Shown here: positions 11,183-32,511 of the stretch, piece by piece
Position numbering within the stretch: position 1 is the stretch's first letter
How the letters are laid out: each line of letters begins with the position of its first letter
DNA from: Opitutales bacterium
GTDB lineage: Bacteria; Verrucomicrobiota; Verrucomicrobiia; Opitutales; UBA2987
Length of the DNA stretch: 64,000 nt
Assembly (NCBI GenBank): GCA_965226885.1
Contig: CBDDEL010000014.1
Span: forward strand, 480,001-544,000
Direction: 5' to 3'
The notes under the pieces: generated by a model
What the model was told of the DNA's origin: nothing
The model's input: the letters and a program-made list of their open reading frames with translations, nothing else
Databases searched by the model: none
Program-made: the position numbers and the translations under genes

Positions 11183-12749
11183 CCCGGATATTTCATGAAG
11201 GGTAAAGTTTGGCTCGTTATTGCTATTGGAGATGGATTTCTTTGTATTTTGAGCAGATCGTCTTGATTTTTAGGTGTTTTTCAGGGTGTAGAGACACTGC
11301 CCCCTTTCCCCCATTGGTTCGGTAGTGCCGGGGGCAGCACCAATGCACCCTTTAGGTTGGCACCAATCGGCGGGCCGCATGGTTGAAAAGACTGGCCCAA
11401 GGATAACTCTCACTTAGGTGAAAGTGAATCGTTCGGGTGTTGCGCACGATGACCGCTCCGATCTTGATTAATTTGAGCCGCAGGGTGTGGCATTGGGCCC
11501 GCGCCCACTTCGTCCCTTTTAAGGCTAACCGGCGCATGGCTTCCATCAAGGTGTAGGCCAGCGCCGACAAGAGCAATCGCCACTGATTGGCCCACCATTG
11601 ATGGGCGCTGGTGCGCTCGCTGAACAATTGCATCTGTTCCTTGATTCGGTTCTCCATTTCACCGCGGCCACAGTATACCTTGTCGTAAAGCTCCTGGGGA
11701 TCGCCCGGCAGGTTCGTCACCACGAAGCGCGGGTTGGACCCCTGTGCGGTGTGTTCGGCTTTATGGATGACCAACCGCAGCCATCGCCACGAATCGGCAG
11801 CATAGACGAAGTCCTGGAATAACCGTTGTTTTTTACCCCTTAGTTCGAACCATTCTTTGGCCTGCTTTTGCAACTGCTGGGCGTCTTGCTGCAAGCGTGC
11901 ATTGCGAGCCATCCCCACGATGTAACTAACTTCGTTGCGGTCGCACCAAGAGAGTATCCGGTCTCGACAAAATCCACTGTCGGCGCGCCAAATAATCCGC
12001 GTACGGGGCCAGCTTTGGCGCATCCGTTTAACCAGCAATTTGAGGATGGCCCCGGCATGCTTGCTGGCATCGATCTTGCTCGGCCGCAGGTAGGCCACCA
12101 GCAGCTGATCACCGCAAAAAACATATAGCGGCAGAAAACAGTAATGATCATAATAACCGTGGAAAAAACGTCCCTCCTGGAGCCCGTGCACCGGATTGTC
12201 GGTGGCGTCAAAGTCCAGGATGATCTCTTCGGGTTCCTCGGCAAAGGAGCCCATGAACTGTTCGACCAACAGCTCGTTTACCGCAAAGGCCGCCCGCCGA
12301 TCCTGCCCGTTTTCAAAACGACACAAAGTCGGCGCGCTGGCCAACGTTTCAATGCGCCCCGTTACCGTTTGCAACAATGGATCGTGGCGCAGGGTATCAA
12401 AGTCGTTCAAATCCTCATAGCCCGCCACCAGCCCGTAAACGCGCTGCCGCAGCATCCCCAATACCTCATGGCGTACTTTGCCCTTCTGCCGTTTGTCCAC
12501 TAACTGTCGGGCCGCTCGTTCGGTCAAGCCCAACTGCCGATCCACTTCCCGGATCAAAAGCAGTCCGGCATCCGAAGTAACCTCTCCGCCCTTGAAATCA
12601 ACCCGCACACGGCGGCCTTTTACCCTTGTCAACTGTAGCTTTAATTGTTTACCTTTTGTCATCGCTGATATTGCTTTAATTATTGATCTATCCTGCTGTA
12701 TATCAGCAGTTAAGCATATCAACGATACTTTTTTTACGAAATATCCGGG
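11183..12749 (-). mobile_element. IS1380-family element copy 2
   Basis: Same TIRs as copy 1; TSD CTAA at 11179-11182 and 12750-12753. Confidence 0.9.
11352..12662 (-). CDS. IS1380-family transposase
   Basis: Near-identical to 2928-4238, with a few substitutions. Confidence 0.92.
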   Translation of the reverse strand: MTKGKQLKLQLTRVKGRRVRVDFKGGEVTSDAGLLLIREVDRQLGLTERAARQLVDKRQKGKVRHEVLGMLRQRVYGLVAGYEDLNDFDTLRHDPLLQTVTGRIETLASAPTLCRFENGQDRRAAFAVNELLVEQFMGSFAEEPEEIILDFDATDNPVHGLQEGRFFHGYYDHYCFLPLYVFCGDQLLVAYLRPSKIDASKHAGAILKLLVKRMRQSWPRTRIIWRADSGFCRDRILSWCDRNEVSYIVGMARNARLQQDAQQLQKQAKEWFELRGKKQRLFQDFVYAADSWRWLRLVIHKAEHTAQGSNPRFVVTNLPGDPQELYDKVYCGRGEMENRIKEQMQLFSERTSAHQWWANQWRLLLSALAYTLMEAMRRLALKGTKWARAQCHTLRLKLIKIGAVIVRNTRTIHFHLSESYPWASLFNHAARRLVPT

Positions 12750-14186
12750 CTAACTCCCAGCGGGCCCGCTGGGAGGCAAATCCCCGGTCCGCGCACATGG
12801 CCGCTATGGGTTCTTCCAGGTTGAAGCGGTTCTGTCTTTGCAAACTCTCTTGCATTTGTTCATTTTCGCTTGGAGTTCGGCTGCCGTAGAGTTTCCAGTC
12901 CAGCAGGTACCCTTCAACGCTTTCTCCCAAAAACAGGGTGTTGCCGAACTCGACCTCTTGGCCCGCTTTACCTCGCACAATCACCTGCCCATCGAGTTCG
13001 TAAACACTCAAGACTTTCTCTGCGTTTTTCACCTGGCGGCCGCCAATGATCCGCTCGTGCGCCTGTTTGATGACCACCGGGATTTGCTCGCTCATGCGCT
13101 CCATCCGGGCGAGGATCTGTTGGACCTGTTTTTCGCTGTAATCGCTTTGCTCCCAGCAGGCTTGCAATAATTCCCGGTGACTGCGGGCATGCTCCCCGAT
13201 CCGTTTGAGCAGCTTTTTCATCTGCCTCAAGATACCCTTGCGCTGCCGCGCGCTGTCCTTTCGCCGCCGGCTGTGGGTCATCTGTATGCACAGCCGATTC
13301 ATCTGCCGAGCCAAGGGCTCCGGTTCGATCGGCATGCGATGGCGCAAACCGGCCTTCTCGCGGATCAGCCGGATCGCTTTGAGCAACGTGCCGGCTACAT
13401 CCTCGAGTAATACCCAGTCCGTCGGCCAATGAATGTTAGCCTCCAAACAGGTGCCGTCGATCAGGCAAATGGTGGTGTCAATCGGCTTGTCCAATCCCAC
13501 CTGCCGGGCCAGAAGGGCATCGCCCACCACCTCAGTCAAGGTCCGGTGCAAGGCCCTCAACTGCTCTTCGCTGAAAAACTTCGAGGCCCGCTCCAGGGTG
13601 CTTTTGGAGATGCCCCTGATGCCATCGATCTGCCGGACACGGCAAAAGTCGGCCAACAGATCGCTGCTGCCCAGAGCCCGCGACAAATGCCGAAACGAAA
13701 TCCCTCCGAGCAGACGGCCCAGCGTATCCATGCGCAGTGCCTTGATGGCAAAACTGGCCCGCTGCCGCCGGGCCTTTAGACCCATTGGCGGCCACCCCTC
13801 CAAGGCCAGCTCAATGGCCTGCGATTCCACCTCCGAGTCGATCAGCAGCCGATCGATTCGATCAATGGTGGCGCGGAAGTTATCGTCATCAAGGCACCGG
13901 TCGACCACAGTTAAAGCTGGACGCAGGAGGCATTGGATGGCTATATTTTTCATAGAAAGGGCTATATTGATTTTGATTTTCGCTAACTCAATTATAGAAC
14001 CCTTTTTTGGCCGGATCGAGCAAAAACTTGCTCTTTCCGGCTCTTTTTATCAACGTCATCCAGTTGACTATAAAATCTTTATATTTTTGGGACAGCCTCT
14101 AATTACGGACTGCCGTTTCATCGCATCAGGATGAAGCGGTCCGGTAGGTGCAATTCCCCTCAACTCAAGCGATGAGAGAAATGCGA

Positions 14187-15432
14187 TTAGTTTTCCCGCA
14201 AGAAACCCACGACTATGAGACCTGCAGACATCAATGCACCGGCAGCATAAAATATTGCCAGCAGGCCGGAAGCGTCACCAATCAATCCAAAAAAATAGGG
14301 TGAGATGGCTGCCAAGAGAAAAGTAGGCGTGTAATAAATAGCATATCCTTCACTGCGAAAGTCTTCATGCAATGTAGGGACCAATCCGATATAGAGCACG
14401 GACGAAGTTCCATTCAGGAAAAATCCGAAAACAGGAAGAAAACAGAGCATGGCCCACCCGGACGGAATTGAGGGGAGGGCAAAGCAGCTTCCCGAAGGCC
14501 CCGCCGAAAAAAGTCAGAGACACGAACCAGCCAATGGAATCCTCTCGAAGGCCGGATTGAATCAGGTAGAAGCCGAGAAAGGCCATAACTGCACTTCGGA
14601 TTGCGGTATCGACCATGCCGACAATCGAAAAGAGCATGAATTGCCGCCGTTTTCGGATTCCCCGGAAGGAGGGTTTCACTGCCTCTGCACCCGAAATCCC
14701 GTTTGACAGGTCCCGATTACTGGCTACTTCCGTCTTTCGCGGGCGTTGCAGCCTTTGGAATATCTGCCTCCGAAAAGCGAGGAGATACGAAATCGAGGCA
14801 ATCAGACCGATACTTCCCAGGACCGCAAAGGTTCCCCGCCAGCCAGCCTTAATCACCAGGACACCCGCGAGGGCGGGAAAAAGAACCTTTCCAATATCGC
14901 CAAAGAAATTGAGGATGCCGATGGCAGGTCCCGCCTTTTCAGGTCTCGAAACATTAGCCACCAAGGCCGTGCCAACCGGATGATAGACTCCGCCTCCGAT
15001 TCCCGAAAATAGGATCAACACAAGCGTGACCGGAAAACTGAAGGCCAGCAGCAAAGCGATAAAACCCGCGCTGAACCACGCCGTGCCAAGCCCGAGAAGG
15101 AGAGTTTCCCCTACTCTTTCCACCAGGAGTCCTGCAGGTATCTGGGCAACGCTGATGGCGGCGTGAACGGCCGTTTTAAGAAGACCGGACTGGGTGTAGG
15201 AGAGCCCCAGTTCCGCTGCCATGAAGGGAAGCAGAAGGGAGAGGCTGGCAATATATCCGTCATTGACGACATGGAGAAGACTGCACCAACCCAGTTGACG
15301 CCGCCCCTCGCGGTCAGAGGGGAGTGGCGATTCCCCACTCTCACTCGCCAGGGTATTCGTACGATCCCTTGTTGACTCACATGCAGGCGCCTTCCGGCGG
15401 CGCTTATTTATTCTTCTAGGAGGTAACGCCAT
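14187..15432 (-). pseudogene. MFS transporter with an internal deletion/frameshift near 14470
   Basis: HVVNDGY, LGLSYTQSG, GVYHPVG; the frame breaks after GAFGKLLC and resumes as PSIPSGWAMLCFLPVFGFFLNGTSS in another frame. Confidence 0.75.
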
Positions 15433-16654
15433 TGACTAGTTCGTTGGCTCGGATGACGAACGGCTTCCAGGCTTCCCTCCCGCTGGCCCCGATGAGATTA
15501 AAACGAAGCACCGGTTCACCGGTTAAATCAAACTCCAGCAGACCGAAATTATCTTCCCGGGTAAATACTTGCCGTATCCGTATTTCCGGTTTGCGCCCGG
15601 GATTTACCTCTGTTGGTGTCTGGCCGAGGGGCGAGCTGACCAGATCATAGAGATCGTAGCCTCCTCTTTCCGACCAAGGTATAGCATTGAGCTCACCTTG
15701 ATGGGTATCGCCGGAAAGCAGGATTACCCCGGTTATTTCATTGTCCCGTATGAAATCGAAGAGTGCGTCGCGTTCGTGCAGATAAGAGGCCCAGGAATCT
15801 CCTCCCGGTTCTTTGGCCTTCGACCAGCCGCTGCCCAAAATCAGCACTTTGAAGGGCGCTGTGCTATCTTTAAGTGATTGCTGCAACCACTCGCTCTGTT
15901 CTTTGCCCAGAAATGTTTTGCCGGGATGGTCAGGCTCTTTATCGGGGTCGCGGTAGTAACGGCAGTCGATAAAAAAGAAGTCAACACCGCCATAGTGATA
16001 TTGAAAAAATACCCCTGGCGACCCCGACAATCCGTAAGATGGATTCACCCAGTAACGTTTAAAAACATTTAGGCCATTCGCCTTGCGGGGGTGGCGCCGG
16101 TCATAATCGTTGAGACCGTAATCATGGTCGTCCCACACTGCCAGTTGGGGTATGGTATGAATGACCGGTTGGAGGGTAGCGACATCGCGTTGGCGACGCC
16201 ATTCTTCGGCCAGAATCTCGGGATCGAGGGTGTCGCCATAAATATTATCGCCGACCCAGAAAAACAAGTCGGGTTGAAACCGCAGAACCGTTGTCCAAAC
16301 GTCCTGTTTGCGGTCGAGTAGGTAGCGCGGGCAGGAGCCAAACGCGATGCTAAAACGTCCCTTCTTCCCCTCAGGCGGGGCGGTTTTTGTATAAAATGGC
16401 GGCAGGTCGCGTTGGTATCTGGGGGTTCCACCCTCGACCCGGAACCGATAATAATAACGAGTATCAGGTTTTAAATCACGTAGCTTCCATTTCAAAACGT
16501 AATCCTCTTCCTTGGTGGCGGAAAGCGCCTGCTTATTCGACCGGGTGAAATCTTTTGAAGTATCGTATTCGATCTCCCCGGTGTGAGATCCACTGAGCCT
16601 TGCCCAGATGGTGATTTCATTCGGACCAACGGCCCCCACCATAGGCCCCTGCAT
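15416..16654 (-). CDS. phoD: Alkaline phosphatase D family protein; signal-peptide segment (start 16749) is out of frame
   Basis: QGPMVG, LKPDTRYYYR, AFGSC, VGDNIYGD, WDDHDYG.ND, IDCRYYRD, LSGDTH. Confidence 0.85.
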   Translation of the reverse strand: MQGPMVGAVGPNEITIWARLSGSHTGEIEYDTSKDFTRSNKQALSATKEEDYVLKWKLRDLKPDTRYYYRFRVEGGTPRYQRDLPPFYTKTAPPEGKKGRFSIAFGSCPRYLLDRKQDVWTTVLRFQPDLFFWVGDNIYGDTLDPEILAEEWRRQRDVATLQPVIHTIPQLAVWDDHDYGLNDYDRRHPRKANGLNVFKRYWVNPSYGLSGSPGVFFQYHYGGVDFFFIDCRYYRDPDKEPDHPGKTFLGKEQSEWLQQSLKDSTAPFKVLILGSGWSKAKEPGGDSWASYLHERDALFDFIRDNEITGVILLSGDTHQGELNAIPWSERGGYDLYDLVSSPLGQTPTEVNPGRKPEIRIRQVFTREDNFGLLEFDLTGEPVLRFNLIGASGREAWKPFVIRANELVNGVTS

Positions 16655-16780
16655 GAAGCGAGGATAACCGATTGGATCATCGGAATAAAGGTCATCGACC
16701 CTCTTATTGCAATTAGCATTATTAAAAAAAGAATGTTACGTGTATTCATTTAAGTTCTTCTCCATGAAAAGTGGCCGTGG

Positions 16781-17761
16781 TCAATTAACGATATACTCAG
16801 GTCTTTTCCCGCGCAACACCCGGACGGCATTATTGGCCATCTGGGAATACCTCATTTTCAGCGCTTCTTCAGTTTCACCGGCCACGTGAGGAGTGAGTAT
16901 CACATTGGGCAAGGATCTCAGAGGGTGGACCGGGGGCAACGGTTCCGTTGCAAACACATCCAGCCCAGCTTTGCGGATGGTTCCTTTTTTAAGCGCATTA
17001 ACCAATTCACTCTCCTCGATAATAGCTCCGCGTGAGGTGTTGATGAGCCAACCCAACCCTTTCTCACCGATTTTCTTCAATTCATCTTTCCCAATCAACG
17101 TTTCCGTCTTATCGGGCCCGTCTCTTAATAAAGGGAGATGCAAGGAAATGATATCCGCCTTCGTCAAGAGGGTATTCAGATCGACCATGGTTACAAAATC
17201 CTGTCCCTCGTTCCCTTTTTGCGGGTTCTTCCTTGTGGCCATGACCTTCATACCGAGGGAATGGGCAATCTCTGCCGTAATCTTGCCGATATGGCCAAAA
17301 CCCAAGACCCCGAAGACCTTGCCCGCCAACTCCGTGCCGATACGGCGGCTCCAACTGCCTGTGTTCATCTCCCGGAGGTAATGATCGCCGTTTTTGGCCA
17401 AAGCCATGAGAAGAAAAATGGCGTGTTCAGCAGTAGACTGAGCCATAATGTGGGCGGTGCTGCAGACGTAGATTCCCCGTTCTTTAGAGGCTGCCAAATC
17501 GACGGTATCGCAACCCGTGCCACAGTGAATCAACCGAAGGCGGGAAGCGCCCTGAATCATTTCCCGGATTAACGAGGCCTTGTTGGGATAAACAATATCG
17601 GCATCTACGATTTCCCGTCCGATAGTCTCGACATCGTCCTTATCGGCAACGACCACAAGGTTCGGCACAAACCCGTTTGCCCTAAGCAAGGTGTCAACAG
17701 TATTCACCATAATCCCGTCATCAGCAGAGCATAACAGCACTTTAACAGGAGTGGTCGTCAT
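16781..17761 (-). CDS. D-isomer-specific 2-hydroxyacid dehydrogenase family protein
   Basis: GVLGFGHIG Rossmann motif, ADIISLHLPL, INTSRG, LDVFATEP, TPHVAG (Arg/Glu/His triad). Confidence 0.88.
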   Translation of the reverse strand: MTTTPVKVLLCSADDGIMVNTVDTLLRANGFVPNLVVVADKDDVETIGREIVDADIVYPNKASLIREMIQGASRLRLIHCGTGCDTVDLAASKERGIYVCSTAHIMAQSTAEHAIFLLMALAKNGDHYLREMNTGSWSRRIGTELAGKVFGVLGFGHIGKITAEIAHSLGMKVMATRKNPQKGNEGQDFVTMVDLNTLLTKADIISLHLPLLRDGPDKTETLIGKDELKKIGEKGLGWLINTSRGAIIEESELVNALKKGTIRKAGLDVFATEPLPPVHPLRSLPNVILTPHVAGETEEALKMRYSQMANNAVRVLRGKRPEYIVN

Positions 17762-17808
17762 CTGTCAAAAGTTCCTTGTCTGGAGGAGAAACGAAAGGGC
17801 GGCAGGGT

Positions 17809-18537
17809 TCAGGAAAACTCGGTTTCGATGAGGGCGGGGAGGTCTTTCACACTCGGTATAACATGGGTGTGCCGATACTTTCCCCACGCTTCCACCGGCC
17901 GCGGGCCACTGAGAACCCCGACTATGCCGCGGCACCCGGCATTGTAACCTTCCAGCATATCCGCTGGCGTATCGCCAATTTTGAGCACTTCATGGACGCT
18001 CTGCACATTCAATTGCGTCATGGCATAGTAAATCATAAAAGGGGCCGGCCGGCCATGCTCACCGGGAACATGCTCGACATCGACCGAGAGATCGACCAAT
18101 CCGTCCCGCACCCAGCCCAAACCGTCCATGATGGCCTCGGTGATATCGCGATGAAAACCAGTGTCGGTGGCTACTTTGATGCCGTTCTCATGACACCACC
18201 GAAAGGTGTCTTCGGCTCCCTCTATTTCGCGGACTTCATTACGGTAATGGTCGATCATGATCTCCGAGTAACGGTGAAATACCTTCATCGCTTCATCGAG
18301 AGTCTCCGGGTAGATGATTTTTTCGAAATCTTCAATCTCAACCTTCTTCCCTTGAGACCGGGCGATGAGGAATTGATAGAGGTGGATCTTGTTGGTGCCC
18401 ATATGCAGGAGTATCTCATCAGGCGTCGTTTGCAGGTCGAATTCCGTGGCCGCTTGGTGGAGGCAGTCCCGAACACCCGTGTCGTCATAAACAGTGGTCC
18501 CTGAGAGATCGAACATGATCATACTGATTTTACTCAT
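17809..18537 (-). CDS. Phosphonatase-like (PhnX-like) HAD hydrolase
   Basis: FDLSGTTV, MGTNK (equivalent to the PhnX Schiff-base MGxxK), DTGF, GRPAPFMI, KIGDTPADMLEGYNAG. Confidence 0.82.
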   Translation of the reverse strand: MSKISMIMFDLSGTTVYDDTGVRDCLHQAATEFDLQTTPDEILLHMGTNKIHLYQFLIARSQGKKVEIEDFEKIIYPETLDEAMKVFHRYSEIMIDHYRNEVREIEGAEDTFRWCHENGIKVATDTGFHRDITEAIMDGLGWVRDGLVDLSVDVEHVPGEHGRPAPFMIYYAMTQLNVQSVHEVLKIGDTPADMLEGYNAGCRGIVGVLSGPRPVEAWGKYRHTHVIPSVKDLPALIETEFS

Positions 18538-18590
18538 AATTTTTTTCTTCCTTTATTTGTGTTATGTTAAGTTGGTTAAATTAAATGAAG

Positions 18591-19952
18591 TCAGCCGGAA
18601 TTTGCTTCTTTTTTCACGGTTGCAGGCAAGGCATTCCATCTGGGCAGAAGGAGCAGCACCGCTATAATAACAAACGCTCCCAGGCAATTAAAGAGAACTC
18701 CCCAGCCGTAATGAGCCCAGATGATACCGGGTAAAGACATACCAAGAATTTGCCCTGTCGAACCCATGCCATTAATCAACCCGGCCGATGATCCGGCGCC
18801 CTTTTTTGTCCCGAAATCCACCGCCGATACCGAACTGATCATGGCATCCGGACCAAATAGGAAAAACCCCATGGCAAACAGCAGCAAAACCATGGTTCCC
18901 TTTCCTCCAGCCTCCGTCAGGCCGTTAAAGAGAAAGAGGATTACGGCGAGAATAAGAAATCCCAGAACTATTATGGGAATGCGGCGCGAATGAAACCATT
19001 TGTCCGAGGCGTAACCGGCAAATATAACCCCTAATGGTCCGGCGGCTTCGAAAGCTGCGCTGATAATGGCCGATTCGCCGATATTTGTTCCCAACTTATC
19101 GTTAATCATAAGCGGCCCCCAGAAGAGAATAGCATAGCGTGTGGGCTTGATAAAAAAATAGACTGCGCCGAGGGTAAGAATGACCGGATTGCGGAAAACT
19201 TCACCGATCACCTTCCAGGATCCTTCTCGTTCCTCCTCGGGCGTTTCATCCTGGTCTAGAACGTCGACTGTCTCTCCGTGATACTCTTCTATGGAGGGCA
19301 GACCGACATCCTCAGGCCGGTTTTTCTGCAAAAGCAGGAACAGCAACCAAATAATGGCCAGAACGACAGCCGGCATGAAAAAGGCGAAGCGCCAATTCAA
19401 AAAAACCAGGGCCATATAACCGGCGAAGGCGCTGGCCAGCATTCCCCCGATGGGGTAGTTGGTGGCCCAAAAACCGTAAGTCCGGCCCCGCTCTTTACGG
19501 GAAAACCAATAGCTGACATTCTTGGTCAGGGGCGCCCACCCGGTGGATTGACAAAGGCCCTGGCAAAAAAAGAGCGCTCCAAAAAGAATCACAGTGGAGG
19601 ACATCCCCATGGCCACGGCTATGACCACAGAAAAAAACATCCCGGCCAGCACCACTTTGCGGGGACCGAACTTGTCTCCGCACATTCCCCAGATGAATTG
19701 CCCGAGAGCATAAGCTATGCCATAGAGCCCATCGATCAAACCGAGCGATGCCTTCGTGATCTCGATGGCCGGATCCTCCAGGATGCCGATCTTGGCCACG
19801 GGGAAAGATTTCCTCGTAAAATAAAATCCAACGTAGGCCAACCAGGTAACCCCAAAAGTTATATAACGCCACCGCTCATAGCGTATGTCGCGCTTGTCCT
19901 GGCGGGCGCCCACCGATAATGCTGAACCTTCTTTTTCTGAAATTGCCATCAC
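18591..19952 (-). CDS. MFS transporter, organophosphate:phosphate antiporter (GlpT/UhpT-like) family
   Basis: YFTRKSF, YALGQF..G...DKFGPR, QSTGWAP, WFSRKERG, NRPEDVGLP, GYASDK. Confidence 0.85.
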   Translation of the reverse strand: MMAISEKEGSALSVGARQDKRDIRYERWRYITFGVTWLAYVGFYFTRKSFPVAKIGILEDPAIEITKASLGLIDGLYGIAYALGQFIWGMCGDKFGPRKVVLAGMFFSVVIAVAMGMSSTVILFGALFFCQGLCQSTGWAPLTKNVSYWFSRKERGRTYGFWATNYPIGGMLASAFAGYMALVFLNWRFAFFMPAVVLAIIWLLFLLLQKNRPEDVGLPSIEEYHGETVDVLDQDETPEEEREGSWKVIGEVFRNPVILTLGAVYFFIKPTRYAILFWGPLMINDKLGTNIGESAIISAAFEAAGPLGVIFAGYASDKWFHSRRIPIIVLGFLILAVILFLFNGLTEAGGKGTMVLLLFAMGFFLFGPDAMISSVSAVDFGTKKGAGSSAGLINGMGSTGQILGMSLPGIIWAHYGWGVLFNCLGAFVIIAVLLLLPRWNALPATVKKEANSG

Positions 19953-20149
19953 TGATATCCTTTTCGCAGGTAATAAAGTGTTTTCATAGTATTCCTTTTA
20001 TTCTTTATTCGTAGCTTTAATGCATCATCGACGAGACGGGGAGACCCAACAAAAAGTAATCCCGCCAGAGTTCGGATATTAGTCTCTTGATAACCCGATA
20101 ATCCGCCTCCTGTTCATTGGCAGAAACCCTCCGCAGTGGTAATGCAATT

Positions 20150-21265
20150 CTATATGCGAACTCCCACACGGTAAGAGCCTGAGGCAATCGCGTAATTAAA
20201 AGATTCATTAACCGTATCGAGGTCAAATGCATCATGAACGAGACCTTCAAAAGGAAAGTTCGTGTAGTATTTTTCCATAAAGGCAACCGCAGTCACCAGA
20301 TCTTCTTCATTATAATTATGAAGGCCCCGTATGGTATGCAAATTGCGTACAAATTTTTCCGCGTTGATATGCAGGTCACGCTGTGGAAACGTTGCTCCTA
20401 CCCATACGGCGGTTCCACCAATGCCGAGGAGCGATAGGGACGATTCCATCGTTTCCGGTACTCCACTGAAATCGAGGGCAGCCTGAATCTGTTCTCCTTC
20501 CGCCATAGGCCCGAGCCGCTCCTTCAGGGAACTCCCATCCGCCTCCATTTTCAAAGTGACGTCGACGCCGAATTTGCGGGCTTTGTCGAGTCGCTCGACG
20601 TCGATGTCCAATGCGATGATTTTCCTCGCTTTGCTTGTCCTGCACATGGCACAGGCAATTATTCCCAGCATTCCCACTCCGGTGACAAGCACTGTCCGAT
20701 CCTCAACGGAGCCCGCCAGACGAAGGGCTCCGGCAACCGTGGCGACAGAACAGTTGATGAGCGCAATGACGGGAAGCGGAAGAGGCTTTTCAATTTTGAT
20801 GACCGGAGTGTATTTACGCAGAATGCAGTATTCACTGAGCCCGCCGTGGAGATGATTGTCCTTCCTGATTTCCTCATGCCCGTATTTTAACAGCCCATCC
20901 CCTTTCTGCGGAATGCCGATCTGCGATAGGTAGCTGTCCGGGTTGGAAGCATAAATCCCCCACGTAACCCGATCGCCTACTCGCAATGTTCCGCCCCGGC
21001 AATCTGTCGTCCGGGCGCCCGGACCAAACTCTTCGATACGTCCAACGATTTCATGCCCGAGAATCGTAGGCGTCTTCTCCGTGCGCTTTCCCGTAAACGT
21101 GTTTAAATCGCTTCGGCACAGAGTCGTGTATTCGTTTCTGACCAGAATTTCACCATCTCGAAGATCCGGCACCTCAACCTCATCCATCTTAAAGGGTTGA
21201 TTCTGGGCATGGGATATCGCTACTTTGCTTGTTTTTACGGTTGGTTCTAATTTGCTTGTTTTCAT
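20150..21265 (-). CDS. Zn-dependent alcohol dehydrogenase, phosphonate-catabolism-associated (HpnZ-like)
   Basis: TLCRSDLNT, ILGHEIVG, GDRVTW, IPQK..LKYGHE, GGLSEYC, NCSVATV, GVGMLG, IRGLHNY; next to a PhnX-like gene. Confidence 0.78.
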   Translation of the reverse strand: MKTSKLEPTVKTSKVAISHAQNQPFKMDEVEVPDLRDGEILVRNEYTTLCRSDLNTFTGKRTEKTPTILGHEIVGRIEEFGPGARTTDCRGGTLRVGDRVTWGIYASNPDSYLSQIGIPQKGDGLLKYGHEEIRKDNHLHGGLSEYCILRKYTPVIKIEKPLPLPVIALINCSVATVAGALRLAGSVEDRTVLVTGVGMLGIIACAMCRTSKARKIIALDIDVERLDKARKFGVDVTLKMEADGSSLKERLGPMAEGEQIQAALDFSGVPETMESSLSLLGIGGTAVWVGATFPQRDLHINAEKFVRNLHTIRGLHNYNEEDLVTAVAFMEKYYTNFPFEGLVHDAFDLDTVNESFNYAIASGSYRVGVRI

Positions 21266-21350
21266 GACCGGTCTATTGATGTGATTCAGACTTGCAGGAT
21301 CCACTGGTCAACGGTGACCATCTAGATCCCATTTTCATTAAATCATTACA

Positions 21351-21368
21351 TATATAGATATCTATATA
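21351..21368. promoter_or_regulatory. Perfect 18-bp palindrome, candidate operator of the phosphonate operon
   Basis: TATATAGATATCTATATA about 90 bp upstream of the ADH start. Confidence 0.4.
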
Positions 21369-21449
21369 ATTTTTCAGAAGTTCAGAAGAATAGCAACCAA
21401 TAATTGTTTAGCCGTATTGATAAATCGAAAAAAGAGTTGTTTTCGGGAT

Positions 21450-21605
21450 TCATGACGAAAAGGCACAGGCAGAACTCTGCAAGAAGGCTTCCACGGTTTC
21501 GGCGATCTGCGAACCGAGCAGGCCGTAGAGGCCGATAAGATCTTCGTAGGGACCGTTAATGGCGAAACAATCGTTGATGCCGATCCTTTTCATGGGCGAG
21601 AGCCA
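21450..21605 (-). pseudogene. Transketolase C-terminal remnant
   Basis: PMKRIGINDCFAINGPYEDLIGLYGL..IAETV resembles the end of a transketolase C-terminal subunit; the rest is absent. Confidence 0.6.
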
Positions 21606-21862
21606 CTTCGGCCATAGTTTAGATGCGAGTTTTACGTCCGCTAACTTTAACTCATTCACGCTTCTTATTTCTCCCCCGGTGTTCACGTAGAAACTGCTCA
21701 AATTCCCATAAAAATCATTTACTTACTTAAATTCCTTTCGCAGTCAAACTGTTGTCTAAATCCGGATATTATGTGAAATTTTCAGATACTGATTCAATAA
21801 CTGAATATGGGATTAAAACCAGTAATTGCACTCTATTGATCATACGCCATATGTGGGGACTT

Positions 21863-22588
21863 TTAAGCCTTATATCGGCCGAATATTTTCTCTTTGATCT
21901 CACTCAGGGAAAGCGTTCTTTCTGGCGGATCGCCTAATTCCTCGACGACTAGATCGGCTTCGGAAAAATCTTCCTTGGCGGTGTAGGCGCTGGTGGTTAC
22001 GAGGCAACGTAAGCCGGCGCCTTTGACCGCGAGGAGGCCATTGCGACTGTCCTCCACAACCAGGCATTCCTCTCCGCGCAATCCCAGGCGCTCTTTGGCC
22101 AGATTGTAAATTTCAGGATCGGGTTTTTTTCGGGAGACAACGTCCCCGGCCAGAATATGGTCAAATCTTTCATAACGGGCGCGGCCCAGCATCTTTTGGG
22201 CAATTAAATTAACAGAACGCTCATTCGAGGTTGAACAGATGGCCAGCTTGAGACCTGCCTCAATCGCTTCGTCGATCAATCGGGCAATACCGCTCCGCAA
22301 CGGAAGTTCCCCCGATTCTATGATTTGCATAAAAAGATCCGTTTTCACTTTATGGAGATCTTTGACGTAAGGATCATGGTCGGTCGCATTTTCCGGCCAG
22401 CCATTTTCCTGGAAAAAATAGCGCATGCGCTCCTTTCCACCGGATATTTTCAAGAGTTCGCCATATAGATCGACGCTCCATTCAATATTGAGGCCGAAAT
22501 GAAAAAAGGCACGGTTGAAAGCGATGCGATGGCCATCGCGCTCGGTATCGACCAATACACCATCACAATCGAAAATGAGCGCTTTCAT
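21863..22588 (-). CDS. cbbY: CbbY-family HAD-IA sugar phosphatase
   Basis: ALIFDCDGVLVDTERDGHRIAFN, ISGGKERM, AGDVVSRKKPDPEIY, VEDSRNGL. Confidence 0.85.
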   Translation of the reverse strand: MKALIFDCDGVLVDTERDGHRIAFNRAFFHFGLNIEWSVDLYGELLKISGGKERMRYFFQENGWPENATDHDPYVKDLHKVKTDLFMQIIESGELPLRSGIARLIDEAIEAGLKLAICSTSNERSVNLIAQKMLGRARYERFDHILAGDVVSRKKPDPEIYNLAKERLGLRGEECLVVEDSRNGLLAVKGAGLRCLVTTSAYTAKEDFSEADLVVEELGDPPERTLSLSEIKEKIFGRYKA

Positions 22589-23463
22589 TGGGCGAAGATT
22601 TTGACATCCGCAGCCTTGCCGACACCGCCGAATTGTCTAATTTTTGCTTTCAACAGATCTTTCATGGCATCGTATTGGCCCTTGAGGACGCGCAGCGGCT
22701 CATAATCGTTGGGATTGTCCCGGTGATAATCGCAGAATCCGTCGATGAATGCGTGCTTCAGGTTGGTCGATATGTTTACCTTTGCGCATCCAAGCTTTAT
22801 GCAACGCTGAATGGTTTCATCCGGCAGGCCGGTGCCGCCATGGAGGGCCAGCGGAGTCTGCGTACGCCGGAATATTTCTTCGATGAGGTCGAACCTTACA
22901 TCGGGTTCGCCCTTGTAATAGCCGTGAGCGGTCCCGATGGCAGGGGCAAAAACACCCAGGTCGAGTTCCCGGCAGAACCGTTCCGCTTTATCCGGGTCGG
23001 CCAGATGGGCGTCCTCCTCGGCCACGACTATATCCTCCTCCACTCCGACGATCTCCCCCAGTTCGGCCTCCACCCCGACACCGACGGCCGCCGCCCATTC
23101 AATCACCTGCCGGGAACGGGCCAGGTTTTCCTCAAAAGGAAGATTGGAGGCGTCGATCATGACCGAGGTCCATCCGGTTTTGATGCATTTTTTGATCATT
23201 TCAAGGTCCTTGCCATGATCCAGATGCAGGGCGACGGGGACAGGTGAACTTTCTGCCAGTTCACGCATCCATCCGACCAGCGTTTCGTGGCTGTAATAAA
23301 CGATCGTTTTGGCGGATGTCTGGACGATGACGGGCGCGTCGAGTTCTTCAGCGGCCTCCACCATTGCCTTCATGGAGGCATAATCGACGGGGTTGAAGGC
23401 ACCCACAGCGTAACCGCCGCGCTTCGCTTCCAACAGCATGGGTGTTAAACTTAAAAGTGGCAT
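22585..23463 (-). CDS. fba: Class II fructose/tagatose-bisphosphate aldolase
   Basis: GYAVGAFN, LHLDHG, SVMIDAS, VEAELG, AIGTAHG, LHGGTG, KVNIST. Confidence 0.9.
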   Translation of the reverse strand: MPLLSLTPMLLEAKRGGYAVGAFNPVDYASMKAMVEAAEELDAPVIVQTSAKTIVYYSHETLVGWMRELAESSPVPVALHLDHGKDLEMIKKCIKTGWTSVMIDASNLPFEENLARSRQVIEWAAAVGVGVEAELGEIVGVEEDIVVAEEDAHLADPDKAERFCRELDLGVFAPAIGTAHGYYKGEPDVRFDLIEEIFRRTQTPLALHGGTGLPDETIQRCIKLGCAKVNISTNLKHAFIDGFCDYHRDNPNDYEPLRVLKGQYDAMKDLLKAKIRQFGGVGKAADVKIFAQ

Positions 23464-23589
23464 TTCTTTAATCTCCAGTTGGGTTGAATTATTTTTAAAA
23501 GGCGAGATTTTATGTAAAACAATTGTTTACGAATTACTATTTTGGTAGCTATAAAATAATACGGAATCGGATCTTCGTAAAGAGCGCTT

Positions 23590-24153
23590 TCAATTAAAAC
23601 AATCGACCCTATTTTGCGGAATGGTTTTCAACTTGCGAAATAACCGACTCCGCGTAATAGAGGAAATGGCGAAAAGGGAATCAGTGGCTACTTCGCAGGG
23701 ATTCGCGCTATCCGCCGAGAAGAGGATCTTGCTTGGCCTCTTCTCGCCATTCTTATTGTAGGAAATATTCCGGATCAGATCGACGCGGACAACACGGTCT
23801 TTATCAAGAACGTAATTCAAGCGGAAACCAGCGGGAGTTTCCCCCTTTGGTACTAGAAAGGTGTCAATAACATCCTTAAACCGATCCCTCCCTCCAAGAT
23901 AATTTGAGTGATCGCGCAGCTTTCGGCAGGAATCGATTTTTAGTGTCAGGTTCAACACATAGTCAAGGTATCTTGCATCATTTTCGATTGCTTGAATGCT
24001 TCCCTCGTCCGTTCCAATGAACGCTTGCAAACTACCCGTCATTTCGAGAGTTTCCCGTTCCATGCTTGTTGCCGCTAAATGACTCATGGCATTTATTGAT
24101 ACCAATTTTTTTTTAATTAATTTAAATATGCGAAATTCGAAATTATACCGCAT
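23590..24153 (-). pseudogene. Truncated transaldolase-family protein (long N-terminal extension type)
   Basis: VDLIRNISY....RP..ILFSADSANP.EV resembles the start of the barrel, then similarity ends; no Schiff-base Lys region. Confidence 0.5.
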
Positions 24154-24154
24154 T

Positions 24155-25147
24155 TCAGTTATCTAGGACACCAATGGACGACCATTCCTGCACGACGATG
24201 AGATCGCTCAACGGCACTTCATACAAAGTCCCTCCAATGGGCACCTCCGCACCTTCTCCGGAAGATATTATGAGCTTGTCGCCATCAAAGCATACGGTCT
24301 CATTCTGACCGTATGGCATTCTTTCTCCCGGAACCCAAGTATCGATAGGAAGCCATGAAATCTTTCCCTCGAAGTAGTTGTCCTTGCCCGGCTCGACCTC
24401 GAACAGCCAAATTGCCGTGTACGTGGTAATCACCACCTTTGTTCCATCCGGCGTGGTATCGGCCGCGGTGGTTCTTCCACCGACATCAAACGAGTCTAGA
24501 TAAGTCAGCGTGTTCACCTCAAAAGGCTTTTCCGAGTCCAGACGATACAGGTACGTGAAGGAGTCGCTCCGATTCTTCGTTACGACATAGACTTTTCCAT
24601 TCGCCCACCAGATCCCTTCACTGTCATAGTTATTCTTTTGCGCCGGGAGTTCCGAAGGGTCGGGATAATCCGGATAGGTGAAGAAAACCTTCTTCAAAAA
24701 GTTGATCCGCGTAGTTACCGGATTCGGCTCCAGCACCCAATAAAGCGTAAAATCGCGGCGGGCCTGTGAATTGTTACCAATATCGCCGATGATGATGTGC
24801 CCGTAATTATCAATCGTCATATCTTCCCAATCGACATTGTAGGCGCCATATATAGGCACCCCTTCGGTTCTCTCATTATAGAGCTTTCCATTACGGTCAT
24901 GCGGAAAAATGCGGGCCCCGTCGCCCGAATCGTTCAGTGTCCAATAGAGATTGGGATGCGTCCGGCTCTTGACCATGCCCGAAGGCTCGAGATGCGCATT
25001 CTCTTCCAATTGCCCGTAGGCCTTAAGCTTCACCGGTTTCATATCCGGCAATTCCACGCTTTTTACTTTTTTATTATTAGCAGCATCAACAACAGCCATG
25101 GCCGTAAGGCTCAGACTGAGCACCAAACTTATTAAAAATAACTTCAT
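24155..25147 (-). CDS. Secreted beta-propeller-like hypothetical protein
   Basis: Signal peptide; EPSGMVKS..P..YWTLNDSGD, NVDWEDM, GDIGNN, YDSEG, TAAD..PDG. Confidence 0.65.
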   Translation of the reverse strand: MKLFLISLVLSLSLTAMAVVDAANNKKVKSVELPDMKPVKLKAYGQLEENAHLEPSGMVKSRTHPNLYWTLNDSGDGARIFPHDRNGKLYNERTEGVPIYGAYNVDWEDMTIDNYGHIIIGDIGNNSQARRDFTLYWVLEPNPVTTRINFLKKVFFTYPDYPDPSELPAQKNNYDSEGIWWANGKVYVVTKNRSDSFTYLYRLDSEKPFEVNTLTYLDSFDVGGRTTAADTTPDGTKVVITTYTAIWLFEVEPGKDNYFEGKISWLPIDTWVPGERMPYGQNETVCFDGDKLIISSGEGAEVPIGGTLYEVPLSDLIVVQEWSSIGVLDN

Positions 25148-25201
25148 CACGTAAGCTCCATAATAATTGAATTTCTTTCTCGGCGGACGGTTTACCTCCA
25201 T

Positions 25202-26542
25202 TTAGTTTCCCGAATCAGATTCGATCCAACGCGTCCGACCGACGGGCTGGGTCCACGCGCGTTTATACGGAAATTCCTTGCTTGGGACAGCGGGTTGAGC
25301 ATCTGAAGTAATGATTGCGCGCACATAGAGCTCGTCCCCTTCCATGCGATAGGTCGCCAGATTTCCAGTCACCTCGGAGAATACCTCTCCTATCTGCGTC
25401 CCTTCGCTGCTGGTGTAATCAAGGGTTGTGAGTATAATGTATCCCTCGTCATCTCTCCTGGAAACACCCTCCACATTAACGCCCCGGCGAGACCCGACAA
25501 AACGAGTTGTATACGTCTCGCCCTCGACCGATTCAATTTCGATTGCCAGCCGCTCCCCATTAAAATCGATGTTTTTCAGCACTACACCCGTGGAGGAGTA
25601 AAAATCACCGCGATGAAAAGCCTTGATGAGGGACTCCGGCGTCAGGTGGCGGGCGCGCACCATGACCCAGCCGCGGCCGGGTTTCGCTCGCTCCTTGTGT
25701 CCGTGATAATCATGTGAATCATCCGTGGCCAGCCCATAAAGGGGTGGCGCACTGAATGTTACCATGCGCAAGGTATTGGCGATATCCCAGATTTCTTCGG
25801 ATGAGGGATGTTCGTCATCGCCCGGATCATGATCACCATCCACTCCGTTCCAGACTTCGAAAAAACGGTTGTCGATAATGCCGGCCAAGTCCTCGGCCGT
25901 GACGCCCCATTTGTAGTTCACGTGATTGACATGGAAAAGTATGGGCCGGCCAAGGCGATGACTCTGTTCCCGAACCAGGCGCAAACTGTTTGCGATGACC
26001 TCTTTGACCGTTTTGCCGCCGGGCTGAGGAATCAGCTCACCGAGATGAGTTGCGTTCATATGAATCGACAATCCGTTATCGGCTCCGTCCGTAATCTCCT
26101 CGCCCTGAATCATGATGAAATGGTTACGCTGCTCGACCAGAGCCCGGTATTCACTTAACGGCTTCAGTCGAATTTCAAAATTGCCTTCTTCCCTCGAACC
26201 GCGGGTTTCCACCCAATGATGACCAAAGCGTTTCAGATACTTCGGATAGGCGTCTCCGTTTGAACTTTGATCCGCCTTTTCCAGAGAAACCCACTTCTGT
26301 CCTTGGCTGAGTATATTGTGATCGGATAAGGCCAGAAAATTATATCCATGGTCAAGATACCACTCAGCCACCATCTCAGGAAAATCATTACCGTCGGACC
26401 AGAAAGTGTGGGTGTGAAGATTACCCTTCCACCACTGCGGTTGAGGATTGGAAGAGATTTCCCTCCCCGCCCCGATCACGAGCATCGGGAAAATATACCA
26501 CAGGATAAGGAGCGTGGTCCTCCCAATGAAATGTGCGTTCAT
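25202..26542 (-). CDS. Secreted PHP-domain (CehA/McbA-like) metallohydrolase
   Basis: WWKGNLHTHTFWSDG, LSDHN, QGEE, NH, EVWNG, ATDDSH, GDFYSSTG. Confidence 0.8.
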   Translation of the reverse strand: MNAHFIGRTTLLILWYIFPMLVIGAGREISSNPQPQWWKGNLHTHTFWSDGNDFPEMVAEWYLDHGYNFLALSDHNILSQGQKWVSLEKADQSSNGDAYPKYLKRFGHHWVETRGSREEGNFEIRLKPLSEYRALVEQRNHFIMIQGEEITDGADNGLSIHMNATHLGELIPQPGGKTVKEVIANSLRLVREQSHRLGRPILFHVNHVNYKWGVTAEDLAGIIDNRFFEVWNGVDGDHDPGDDEHPSSEEIWDIANTLRMVTFSAPPLYGLATDDSHDYHGHKERAKPGRGWVMVRARHLTPESLIKAFHRGDFYSSTGVVLKNIDFNGERLAIEIESVEGETYTTRFVGSRRGVNVEGVSRRDDEGYIILTTLDYTSSEGTQIGEVFSEVTGNLATYRMEGDELYVRAIITSDAQPAVPSKEFPYKRAWTQPVGRTRWIESDSGN

Positions 26543-26569
26543 AATTTAAATATAACTATGCTTCAATTA

Positions 26570-29500: not shown

Positions 29501-29620
29501 GGGCACAAGGTCTGCATCTTGCCCGTGCAGCAGAATTTGGGTTCCTGCGGCAAAGTAGAGGAATACGAATAAATGAAAGAGAGTGGTTTTCTTAAATATA
29601 ATAATTCTACACAGTTGCAT
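26570..29620 (-). CDS. Secreted calcineurin-like metallophosphoesterase with a LamG-like domain and Trp-rich C-terminal domain
   Basis: LPDTQYY, HLGDI, GNHD, TTHAY, NGH; WHHFGLKY LamG-like strand; aromatic C-terminus. Confidence 0.8.
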   Translation of the reverse strand: MQLCRIIIFKKTTLFHLFVFLYFAAGTQILLHGQDADLVPGASDGSYHFVILPDTQYYYGDQGPGNFGKWLAQMNWIRDHAESHNLKYVLHLGDITDQADHSSTHLTQWGRATSAANGIMDKVPMSLVTGNHDGLDNSRTSLFSNPEYFGTGSVYANQPTLIETMEPDKWENSVHRIEIEGRFWLIICFEWGPRDEVIAWADDVLNRFPDDYAILTTHAYLFRDSSRFDWGLLGSHDREDRQRGNPIGYEALNGDPEGANDGQLMWNKLIRHHSNVKLVLNGHVGRSGHGRRVSINDDRHFVQQHLINFQHWSGDGDGRMRLMEFNPAGDTVQIKSFSPFSGEVLKGPDLEFAFTFSLSTRPLKTHYREALQELNPVAAFRLQGEDAHRPLISQFPIGEWELAQAEGFAYDDASRFQSGSRIHYESSQTATDAWTALFWFRSNAAEETLPILRIDGESGEVLSVFADTSPLMLLPLDDSHSQSVFEESINQLTVMMEPSQWHHFGLKYEAGQLMPILDGEDLSRIDFPVAEVSSFTLGDFADDSVATNADVEWNIVDFSYHTRALSTSDIEWLWRSAFCQTISGEVILNEGLDSTTAIEIQQDSYPGFALRTENGGEVLLFGTSETSIYRIQDEAGARRDPHSRYLRLPQTLEYSEGILLTTPQVSDSSNPSVAPPPVRWKLSNRIEGLYFGSSYTLTRMSVLNTPLSLPNDGSFAKLNSTFFPFADDWKGGYINQSGQYLYGQEDVLEEVAVSGLGGGKFRLTHPQAWNSSTLLGQSSEQNTQMTVQPIEGGWEVTIHEGGQPSSGRVPFAFAFVFVPENASEVRSGWVDPADSAGQGSLWEMTGTGSYRFTAPLENGPRGVLQITPGAAAGGEAPLFKLYSSDEGVWELKFEVNGEMVDVPFAWAWISLEAGYPAKATPEDARVLEALEDAAYGDLGWYFSERLSWIFVDSESWPWVWSPGSGWLFLFLETAPADDFWFFEWASGAFLYVDRAVPSWAWSTKDGWIPWPLESLN

Positions 29621-29646
29621 TTAATGTTGCATTTAATGCAGAAGAG

Positions 29647-29680
29647 AAGGCGGGCACGCCATGTAGCGTGCCCACCTTTT
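29647..29680 (-). terminator. Intergenic hairpin, putative intrinsic terminator or attenuator
   Basis: AAGGCGGGCACGC-loop-GCGTGCCCACCTT between two co-oriented genes. Confidence 0.5.
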
Positions 29681-29716
29681 CAGTGCATACCTATATGTGC
29701 TAACCCAAGACTTAAT

Positions 29717-32482: not shown

Positions 32483-32511
32483 AGTGATTTTGGGGTTAGA
32501 TTAAGTTTTGG

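Follow-up and report, generated by a model that had tools for sequence, protein, structure and literature searches.

The gene cluster at positions 14187 to 21265 of a 64,000-nucleotide stretch of DNA (the window; C14:480001-544000, from a 96.3%-complete genome of 5.48 Mb in 17 contigs) is probably a partly decayed copy of a horizontally acquired phosphonate-scavenging cassette. The cassette would be of the kind in which PbfG, a zinc-dependent alcohol dehydrogenase (ADH), feeds the C-P hydrolase PhnX, and it would let a marine-type bacterium take up a natural C-P compound, oxidize it and release phosphate. The initial annotation of this DNA had proposed such a core route, from a zinc-dependent ADH by way of a beta-carbonyl phosphonate to a PhnX-type HAD hydrolase without PhnW, and the route matches the biochemistry of PbfG and PhnX as well as the residues and gene contexts described below. 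The conserved residues, the gene contexts and the lack of any other feeder in the genome together fit the published PbfG-PhnX scheme.

Six open reading frames (ORFs), all on the minus strand, lie between 14187 and 21304. Pfam and NCBIfam assignments bear out the six closely spaced, co-oriented genes that had been described: a zinc-dependent ADH of the HpnZ/PbfG family, here called type 1 (20150-21265; PF08240 and PF00107, with TIGR03366 as best family); an OPA-family, GlpT/UhpC/PgtP-like MFS carrier, the proposed phosphonate importer (18591-19952; PF07690); the HAD, a putative phosphonatase-type C-P hydrolase of a divergent TIGR03351 sub-clade (17809-18537; TIGR03351 best, PDB matches to PhnX); a D-2-hydroxyacid dehydrogenase resembling phosphoglycerate dehydrogenase (PGDH) and glyoxylate reductase (16781-17761; PF02826 and PF00389); a frameshifted PhoD-type phosphoesterase (15416-16749; PF09423 and PF16655); and a broken second MFS carrier (14187-15432; PF07690). 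The six families thus stand, but not the intactness of the set, since PhoD and the second MFS are frameshifted, and an upstream pair had been missed. This pair consists of a CbbY-like HAD sugar-phosphate phosphatase (21863-22588) and a class II ketose-bisphosphate aldolase paralogue (22585-23463), both on the minus strand. The ADH frame runs from a GTG at 21304 (20150-21304), with the ATG at 21265 lying 13 codons further in, and the C-terminal fragment of the second MFS ends at 14187. Promoter and terminator scans of 13900-24500 did not rise above shuffled sequence (12 versus 10.9 and 11 versus 12.2 sites) and were therefore uninformative on operon structure.

The assignment of the HAD rests on its family scores and catalytic residues. 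Its best NCBIfam matches were TIGR03351 (PhnX-like; 168.7 bits) and TIGR01422 (PhnX; 108.1 bits), and all six of its PDB matches were PhnX of B. cereus (best E 3.5e-13). In the PDB and family alignments D10 corresponds to the nucleophile Asp12 of PhnX, and M46, G47 and K50 correspond to Met49, Gly50 and the Schiff-base Lys53, so that the MGxxK motif pointed out earlier (MGTNK) does align with the lysine of the B. cereus enzyme. T126 is conserved, R163 matches Arg160, and D189 and D193 match Asp186 and Asp190; the motifs are DLSGT, MGTNK, the Arg within GRP and a GDTxxD Mg site, with two residues inserted before GRP relative to PhnX. The Asp+2 general acid is absent: the HAD has S12 at the position where PhnX has Ala14 and phosphatases have Asp. 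We take TIGR03351 to describe this same arrangement, namely a motif I without Asp at Asp+2, a cap-domain Lys and an Arg in place of the usual Lys.

The relatives of the HAD are consistent in family. A search of 1.84 billion cluster representatives gave 57 relatives at E <= 1e-30. For all 41 relatives scanned against NCBIfam (40 of the best full-length ones and the orthologue in locus L038), TIGR03351 was the best family, at 159.5-246.5 bits with nine above the cut-off, and the PhnX score was at most 134 bits. By these scores the HAD belongs to a sub-clade that diverges within the PhnX-like lineage and is distinct from canonical PhnX. FDLSGTTV is common to all 18 aligned members of the sub-clade and MGTNKIHLYQF to all except L038. 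This signature differs from that of TIGR03351 members, which have Ala in motif I and no such His, and from the two canonical PhnX sequences aligned, which have Ala and a His at +3. The sub-clade is common in metagenomes, with 719 clusters found at 90% identity, the best 120 of which are 76-95% identical.

The ADH (PF00107, 75.7 bits; PF08240, 53.2 bits) had as its best NCBIfam match TIGR03366, HpnZ_proposed, at 298.8 bits; its second family scored 104.7 bits, and the next unrelated ADH paralogue in the genome scored 126.8 bits with TIGR03366. Across all the ADH types compared, sister loci included, TIGR03366 scores were 291.6-314.2 bits. The characterized PbfG of C. protaetiae has a catalytic zinc held by Cys45, His66 and Cys166 and a four-Cys structural zinc site, and HEP (2-hydroxyethylphosphonate) is predicted to be contacted by Ser47, Arg56, His124 and Asn298 (Piazza et al., Protein Sci 2026; PMC13576164). 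Cys63, Ser65 (+2), Arg74 (+11), His84 (+21), His143 and Cys185 of the window ADH reproduce the published spacing if one inserted residue is allowed; the match is one of spacing against published numbers, not an alignment with the PbfG reference sequence WP_154797266. The zinc-ligand and Ser/Arg/His residues are kept in all 15 aligned neighboring ADHs. An invariant Asn in GLHNY (N330) is offset by about 14 residues from the published Asn298, and its placement is uncertain. Contig C17 carries two more copies of the window ADH, at 97.7% amino acid identity.

No other recognizable source of substrate for the HAD was found. The absence of phnW and of an FAD amine oxidase, first noted for the window, holds genome-wide. 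There is no intact PhnW in the genome, only a 120-residue C-terminal remnant with a TAG stop (C17:457810-458181), and no PbfD/HpnW oxidase, the best TIGR03364 match reaching 51 bits. PhnJ had no match in the genome, and neither a C-P lyase nor a canonical PhnX was found there. On this evidence the ADH appears to be the sole recognizable feeder of the HAD in this genome. Elsewhere, locus E (C11:233613-234272; L001/L127) holds a PhnX-like gene of the TIGR03351 type (214.4 bits, FDMAGTTV) with an in-frame TGA just before GRP, and no cassette gene was found within 10 kb of it.

To survey the distribution of the HAD, the GTDB genomes were scanned, and 106 pattern matches yielded 23 confirmed loci, two of them (L019 and L022) from one metagenome-assembled genome (MAG). 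The orthologues are 76-98% identical, with one at 57%, and are spread over at least seven phyla. They occur in Opitutales, Gemmatimonadota, Sedimentisphaerales, Pirellulales, Paracoccaceae/Rhodobacteraceae, Deltaproteobacteria/Syntrophaceae, Desulfobacterales, Chloroflexota and Bacteroidetes. Among 400 other Verrucomicrobiota genomes sampled, none had a close HAD orthologue (one relative was found at E <= 1e-25, only 30% identical); at E <= 1e-80, the 2-hydroxyacid dehydrogenase likewise had no close orthologue among them. High identity of the HAD across phyla together with its rarity within Verrucomicrobiota suggests that the cassette was horizontally acquired.

The neighbors of the HAD in these 23 loci were counted by tblastn, taking matches over at least half of the query, with detection limited by seven contigs of less than 7.5 kb. 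An HpnZ-type ADH accompanies the HAD in 13 of the 23, so the pairing proposed for the window is not due to chance. The OPA carrier of the window type (84-93% identity) stands directly upstream of the HAD in five loci, and the 2-hydroxyacid dehydrogenase follows the HAD in four, all in Opitutales. PhoD was found in three loci and the second MFS in one. Other phosphonate genes were PhnW (two loci; 495 bits in L023), PhnA (two, L017 and locus C of this genome; 473.6 bits in L017) and canonical PhnX (two); a class III aminotransferase was present in five and an acylating aldehyde dehydrogenase in six. PhnC, PhnD and PhnE homologues lie upstream of the HAD in four Desulfobacterales loci (L034-L037), and one representative of each, when scored, exceeded its NCBIfam cut-off. 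Five Paracoccaceae loci carry a phn-type LysR regulator, which at 274.5 bits is below its cut-off. In the Sedimentisphaerales locus L023, two genes of the MtmB-like monomethylamine methyltransferase family follow a PhnW-ADH-HAD-aminotransferase series (L023:12290-15100), with a citryl-CoA-lyase-like gene and an acylating aldehyde dehydrogenase further on.

The pathway that we propose begins with uptake, through the OPA-family carrier, of a small omega- or beta-hydroxyalkylphosphonate, most probably HEP. The ADH, with NAD(P)+, would oxidize the hydroxyl to a beta-carbonyl phosphonate, phosphonoacetaldehyde, as was shown for a homologous member of its family. By the mechanism known for PhnX, the HAD would then form a Schiff base through cap-domain Lys50, transfer the phosphoryl group to Asp10 and release Pi and an aldehyde. 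PhoD, which has an N-terminal leader in its intact copies, may act on extracytoplasmic phosph(on)ate esters and so free esterified phosphonates, the hydrophobic leader serving as a putative export signal. More speculatively, the aldolase/CbbY-like pair may capture the aldehyde product of the HAD.

Support for the carrier comes from its family and its context. It matched PF07690 (171 bits), TIGR00881 PgtP (234.8 bits), UhpC (202.1 bits) and GlpT (197 bits), below the cut-offs of all its NCBIfam equivalog and subfamily matches, and its best PDB match was GlpT (1pw4, E 8e-40). It keeps the Arg residues aligned to R45 and R269 of GlpT, which we take to be the paired Arg of TM1 and TM7, with K80 replaced by Q and H165 by Y. 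In other lineages PhnCDE or an Opp-like ABC system takes the place of the OPA carrier beside the HAD, which supports its proposed role as a phosphonate importer. That phosphonate may enter through an OPA-type carrier, as first suggested for this cluster, has a precedent in AepP (PMC8316502); antiport would be by analogy with the family.

The 2-hydroxyacid dehydrogenase (PF02826, 169 bits; PF00389, 66 bits) scored 186.5 bits with PGDH TIGR01327, under the cut-off of 454, and best matched the phosphoglycerate dehydrogenase 1wwk (E 2e-50). A role as phosphite dehydrogenase was considered and set aside, no such family being among its 22 NCBIfam matches. PhoD exceeded the Pfam cut-offs for both its domains (PF09423, 94.7 bits; PF16655, 43.3 bits), and the 355-residue ORF of the second MFS matched PF07690 at 117 bits.

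Several observations weigh against the proposed pathway or the competence of this copy to carry it out. Both markers fall below their curated cut-offs, the ADH for TIGR03366 (298.8 versus 328.1 bits) and the HAD for both of its families (218.9 for TIGR03351 and 220 for TIGR01422). The four-Cys structural zinc site of the characterized PbfG is absent from the window ADH; in the ADHs of the window, L019 and L038 the lobe is replaced by WGIYASNPDSYLSQIGIPQKG, and a C-x2-C-x2-C-x7-C lobe is present in the other 12 of the 15 aligned ADHs, which make up the two remaining types. Among the PhnX residues named as catalytic, Asp12, Lys53 and His56 (PMC11203657), the last is not matched in the HAD, which has Leu in that column and a His one residue earlier, and the HAD also differs from PhnX at Cys22 (Asp) and Tyr128 (F128). 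Near-identical HADs are accompanied by two ADH types of 31-35% identity both in this genome and in MAG OFTM292, and the operons of loci L034 and L036 include a canonical PhnX (331 bits) in addition to the HAD and an ADH. We know of no assayed member of TIGR03351 or of the HAD sub-clade. Only a few analogues were tested with PbfG itself: HEP, AEP (2-aminoethylphosphonate), isethionate, threonine, ethanol, propanol and glycolate (PMC13576164).

The last points against concern the state of the genes. Relative to copy B, the second copy in this genome, and to L019, PhoD has a 2-nucleotide insertion at about 16703-16704, which puts the short hydrophobic leader MNTRNILFLIMLIAIR, starting with the ATG at 16749, out of frame with the catalytic part (ORF 15416-16654). 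The second MFS is split into two frames (ORFs 14365-15432 and 14187-14450) that meet at about 14461-14486 through a frameshift or deletion; its intact 422-residue L019 orthologue aligns to them over residues 4-306 and 324-422. As PhoD and the second MFS are both frameshifted, the window copy appears to be partly decayed, with the proviso that these indels were read from the assembly and short indels may be assembly errors.

Counting the window cassette, there are three paralogous copies in this Opitutales-type genome, which is ridden with insertion sequences (IS). The segment 14479-19966 is repeated at C17:747089-752574 (copy B; 94.9% identity), 19989-21623 is repeated twice on C17 (98.2% and 96.8%) and 21615-30000 at C17:850133-858484 (95.5%). 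The segments 19989-21623 and 21615-30000 map to different places on C17, and the window is therefore a mosaic whose parts meet at a rearrangement junction close to 21615-21626. In the 560 bp that precede the ADH lies a 48-residue remnant of a transketolase C-terminal subunit on the minus strand (21456-21599), found by tblastn with L019 TktC (residues 270-317, 85% identity). At its 3' end the cluster is abutted by an ISNCY-family insertion sequence (12703-14105, minus strand; NF033593, 149.4 bits). The element's end of about 200 bp (13901-14105) is found again, 89-100% identical, at well over 100 genomic positions, a massive IS expansion. Within the window, transposase genes of the IS1380 and ISNCY families occur together in repeated pairs at 2928-5651, 8075-9565 and 11352-13953.

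The third paralogous locus, locus C (C17:283-296 kb), is older. It has the order OPA' ... ADH - aldolase - CbbY-like HAD - OPA (90%) - split HAD - PhoD (84%) - PhnA, its HAD is split by an insertion, and its ADH is 31.5% identical to that of the window, with 313 bits for TIGR03366. The sister locus as a whole (C17:283523-298000, with L017) comprises GDPD, a HAD-IIA phosphatase, a second OPA carrier, the cassette, PhnA, a 2Fe-2S/cyclase-domain protein and a sulfatase; L017 also has a MIP channel, and its PhnA, a phosphonoacetate hydrolase, is above the cut-off.

One possibility, compatible with the other readings and held tentatively, is that the window copy is a decaying duplicate eroded by insertion sequences, with function, if any, residing on the C17:747-755 kb copy or at other loci. 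The PhoD insertion and the MFS frameshift would be expected of such a copy, as would the transketolase remnant and rearrangement junction upstream and the much-repeated insertion sequence at the 3' end; the split HAD of locus C, the TGA in the locus E gene and the reduction of PhnW to a remnant show similar damage elsewhere. Set against this, four window genes (ADH, OPA carrier, HAD and 2-hydroxyacid dehydrogenase) encode full-length proteins that share 83-98% identity with their L019 counterparts, the end of the second MFS is missing from copy B too, and the short indels could be assembly errors.

We also examined whether the substrate is HEP. The same chemistry could serve another or an additional substrate, such as 1,2-dihydroxyethyl-, 2,3-dihydroxypropyl- or 2-hydroxypropyl-phosphonate, an alternative that we regard as rather unlikely. 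As parts of the same proposal, the product would be glycolaldehyde or a hydroxyketone instead of acetaldehyde; it would be assimilated with dihydroxyacetone phosphate (DHAP) by the aldolase/CbbY-like pair or by the transketolase/RpiB/transaldolase-like set of L019; and the PGDH-like dehydrogenase would oxidize a 1-hydroxy- or 2-hydroxy-phosphonate such as phosphonolactate. One hint is found in L034 (311-5457) and L036 (695-6215), in which PhnE, HAD, ADH and canonical PhnX are abutting genes on one strand, continuing into a class III aminotransferase in L034 and preceded by PhnD and two PhnE copies in L036. The HAD and PhnX would be redundant here if both cleaved phosphonoacetaldehyde. Two or three ADH types (31-45% identical) occur beside near-identical HADs, two of them within one genome, and the invariant FDLSGTTV and MGTNKIHLYQF set the sub-clade apart from TIGR03351 members and PhnX. 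The best families of the OPA carrier, PgtP and GlpT, carry C3 organophosphates. Among natural products, phosphonolactate, 2,3-dihydroxypropylphosphonic acid (DHPPA) and a proposed phosphonofructose have been described, and the dehydrogenase VlpB is proposed to form phosphonolactate from phosphonopyruvate (Li and Horsman, PMC8942020).

Other results favor HEP. The residues predicted to hold it are kept in 15 of 15 aligned ADHs. The HAD was the only PhnX-family match in four of five other genomes checked, and PhnW was above its cut-off in three of the five, which suggests that the HAD has the role of an ordinary phosphonoacetaldehyde hydrolase there; in L023, PhnW, ADH and HAD are consecutive. 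A literature search on dihydroxypropyl- and dihydroxyethyl-phosphonate and phosphonolactate gave, among the relevant matches, biosynthesis only and no catabolism. HEP thus remains the best guess for the substrate, and the presence of canonical PhnX in the same operon at two loci, together with two ADH types in one genome, leaves room for substrates besides HEP, so that it may not be HEP alone.

The aldolase/CbbY-like pair bears on the same question. The CbbY-like HAD matched PDB 4uav (At3g48420; E 5.7e-81) and CbbY itself (4uar; E 4.9e-47). CbbY is a xylulose-1,5-bisphosphate phosphatase. The aldolase (PF01116, 300.6 bits) passed the cbbA subfamily model TIGR00167 (270.4 bits, cut-off 215.6) and was below the cut-offs of the fructose-bisphosphate aldolase equivalog models. 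The genome has four PF01116 genes in all; this one was rejected as the housekeeping fructose-bisphosphate aldolase, a role that presumably falls to the fourth gene, which has a longer frame, at C16:755643. The pair stands immediately upstream in eight of the 23 HAD loci (L017, L020, L021, L024-L027 and L039), which span three phyla. At its position L019 has a transaldolase-like gene, RpiB and a split transketolase, and the transketolase remnant of the window recalls this set; the pair, the L019 genes and the remnant all count in favor of a substrate other than HEP or in addition to it.

Against this use of the pair, it is not specific to phosphonate loci. A metagenome scan with the aldolase gave 539 relatives, and the analysis covered the best 80 loci: the pair was present in 75 (the five without it are contigs of at most 2.2 kb), the HAD in one (L040) and the OPA carrier in two (L040 and L041). 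Downstream neighbors were surveyed in the 31 loci with at least 3 kb of sequence on that side. Many of these share a wider synteny (DEAD helicase, malate synthase) and are probably not independent. The dihydroxyacetone kinase genes DhaL and DhaK followed the pair in 26 of the 31, a further HAD was present in 21, a pyrroloquinoline quinone (PQQ) dehydrogenase was nearby in 18, the order acetoin-dehydrogenase-like E1alpha-E1beta-aldolase-E2-phosphatase was seen in four, and one locus had none of these neighbors. The set aldolase - CbbY-like phosphatase - DhaL - DhaK - HAD occurs across L044-L119 (for example, L091:6112-13378 and L116:3478-8300), and in a variant the pair is inserted into an acetoin-dehydrogenase-like E1alpha/E1beta/E2 operon. 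A literature search combining phosphonate, bisphosphate aldolase and phnX returned nothing relevant. We speculate that the pair is a general module of DHAP-aldolase and phosphatase beside aldehyde-producing enzymes.

These results can be combined into a more specific proposal, in which the HAD sub-clade cleaves a substituted beta-carbonyl phosphonate derived from dihydroxyethyl-, dihydroxypropyl- or hydroxypropyl-phosphonate, and the resulting aldehyde is condensed with DHAP by the pair or by the transketolase/RpiB set. We rate this as rather improbable. The TIGRFAM family description suggests that hydroxy-phosphonoacetaldehyde might be split by PhnX-like enzymes, with glycolaldehyde as a product. 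If the proposal is true, hydrolytic C-P cleavage would be linked in one pathway with carbon capture by aldol reaction, and the pair would serve generally as a module for capturing aldehydes, beside PQQ dehydrogenases and acetoin-type E1/E2 enzymes as well. In any case, the PhnX co-operons, the coexisting ADH types, the HAD's own signature and the recurring aldolase/CbbY-like pair argue that the story is incomplete.

A further alternative dispenses with phosphonates: the OPA carrier would import a sugar or glycerol phosphate, the dehydrogenases and the aldolase would process it, and the HAD would be a phosphatase beside PhoD. The class II aldolase, the CbbY homologue and the transketolase remnant in and around the cluster would suit it, as would GDPD, MIP and the second OPA carrier in the sister locus L017, the extracellular-type phosphoesterase genes upstream and the sub-threshold scores of both phosphonate markers. 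We nevertheless consider it very improbable. In the HAD the Asp+2 general acid of HAD phosphatases is missing, and the cap Lys and the Arg, which are peculiar to phosphonatases, are retained; its orthologues adjoin PhnCDE, PhnW, a phn-type LysR regulator, PhnX and PhnA; and TIGR03366 is the best family of the ADH by almost 200 bits.

Upstream of the aldolase, the minus strand continues with a co-oriented block (23590-35718) that resembles an outer-membrane phosphorus-scavenging set. It encodes a TonB-dependent-receptor-like protein (32512-35718), a lamin-tail-domain protein (29717-32482), a 1016-residue metallophosphoesterase (26570-29620), a PHP/CehA-McbA-like protein (25202-26542) and two proteins without family (24155-25201 and 23590-24153). 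Rfam gave no match in 13000-36500. Beyond the block, two stretches of high GC content (0.61-0.62), at 35974-38573 and 43871-46160, have mirrored ORFs of equal length (255, 151, 197 and 181 residues) on opposite strands, which suggests inverted copies of one element of about 2.3 kb.

HEP and related phosphonates are thought to form a sizeable part of marine dissolved organic phosphorus, as argued in PMC13576164, and hydrolase genes for HEP-type phosphonates tell who can use this phosphorus without C-P lyase. With the core chemistry published in 2026, the locus is a further example of it, and what keeps it of interest is its hydrolase sub-clade, the presence of more than one dehydrogenase type and the link between aldolase and phosphatase. 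Should the substrate prove to be other than HEP, or the pair capture the aldehyde, the known hydrolytic phosphonate routes would grow; otherwise the locus would be a routine example of the 2026 pathway.

The cluster was compared with several known systems. Like PhnX (EC 3.11.1.1; B. cereus structures 1fez, 1rql and 2iof), the HAD has the HAD fold, the Asp nucleophile, the cap Lys, the GRP Arg and the Mg site and has no Asp+2; unlike PhnX, it scores 108 bits against a cut-off of 220, has Ser for Ala14, Asp for Cys22 and Phe for Tyr128, and has Leu at the His56 column. The proposed TIGR03351/TIGR03366/TIGR03364 system supplies the best families for both the HAD and the ADH, and the profile comparison suggested at the outset, with the HpnZ and PhnX-like models, was borne out to that extent. 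It was not borne out at the level of the cut-offs, which neither marker reaches, and this genome has no HpnW/PbfD oxidase; the sub-clade further differs from TIGR03351 members by Ser for Ala in motif I and the invariant His after the Lys. A literature search on HpnZ, TIGR03366, TIGR03351 and 'phosphonatase-like' found no work characterizing these families.

Among transporters, the nearest parallel is AepP, an OPA-family permease for 2AEP that lies beside hydrolytic phosphonate genes, also in Verrucomicrobia (Murphy et al. 2021, PMC8316502). The window carrier is likewise a GlpT-related MFS protein beside such genes, a likeness of family and not of compared sequences, and it differs in its substrate, presumably a hydroxy- and not an amino-phosphonate. 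The aldolase/CbbY-like pair recalls CbbY and the class II aldolase CbbA, the former being a close homologue of the phosphatase and the aldolase passing TIGR00167; unlike in that setting, there are no Calvin-cycle genes here, and elsewhere the pair stands with DhaK/DhaL, PQQ dehydrogenase and acetoin-dehydrogenase-like E1/E2.

The closest system is that of PbfG, which supersedes, for the ADH-hydrolase core, the earlier view that the gene combination had not been characterized (PMC13576164). PbfG oxidizes HEP to phosphonoacetaldehyde with a kcat/KM of 8.9e4 M-1 s-1; PhnX pulls the reaction, and Pi is released on coupling (PMC13576164). The window differs in that its ADH lacks the four-Cys zinc site, its hydrolase is of the TIGR03351 type and not canonical PhnX, and both markers are sub-threshold. 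The main text of the PbfG paper makes no mention of PhoD, MFS, TIGR or hydroxyacid, and the accessory genes of the window, namely the OPA carrier, the PGDH-like dehydrogenase, PhoD, the second MFS and the aldolase/CbbY pair, are not discussed in that main text (PMC13576164). The PbfG clusters, in which PbfG is joined by PhnX or by PhnY and PhnA, often lack phnW and pbfD, and those lacking phnW are found in Verrucomicrobiota, Planctomycetota, Gemmatimonadota and Bacteroidota (PMC13576164). The window shares their central arrangement: a PF00107 zinc-dependent ADH near a phosphonatase-type HAD, two genes downstream, with neither phnW nor pbfD.

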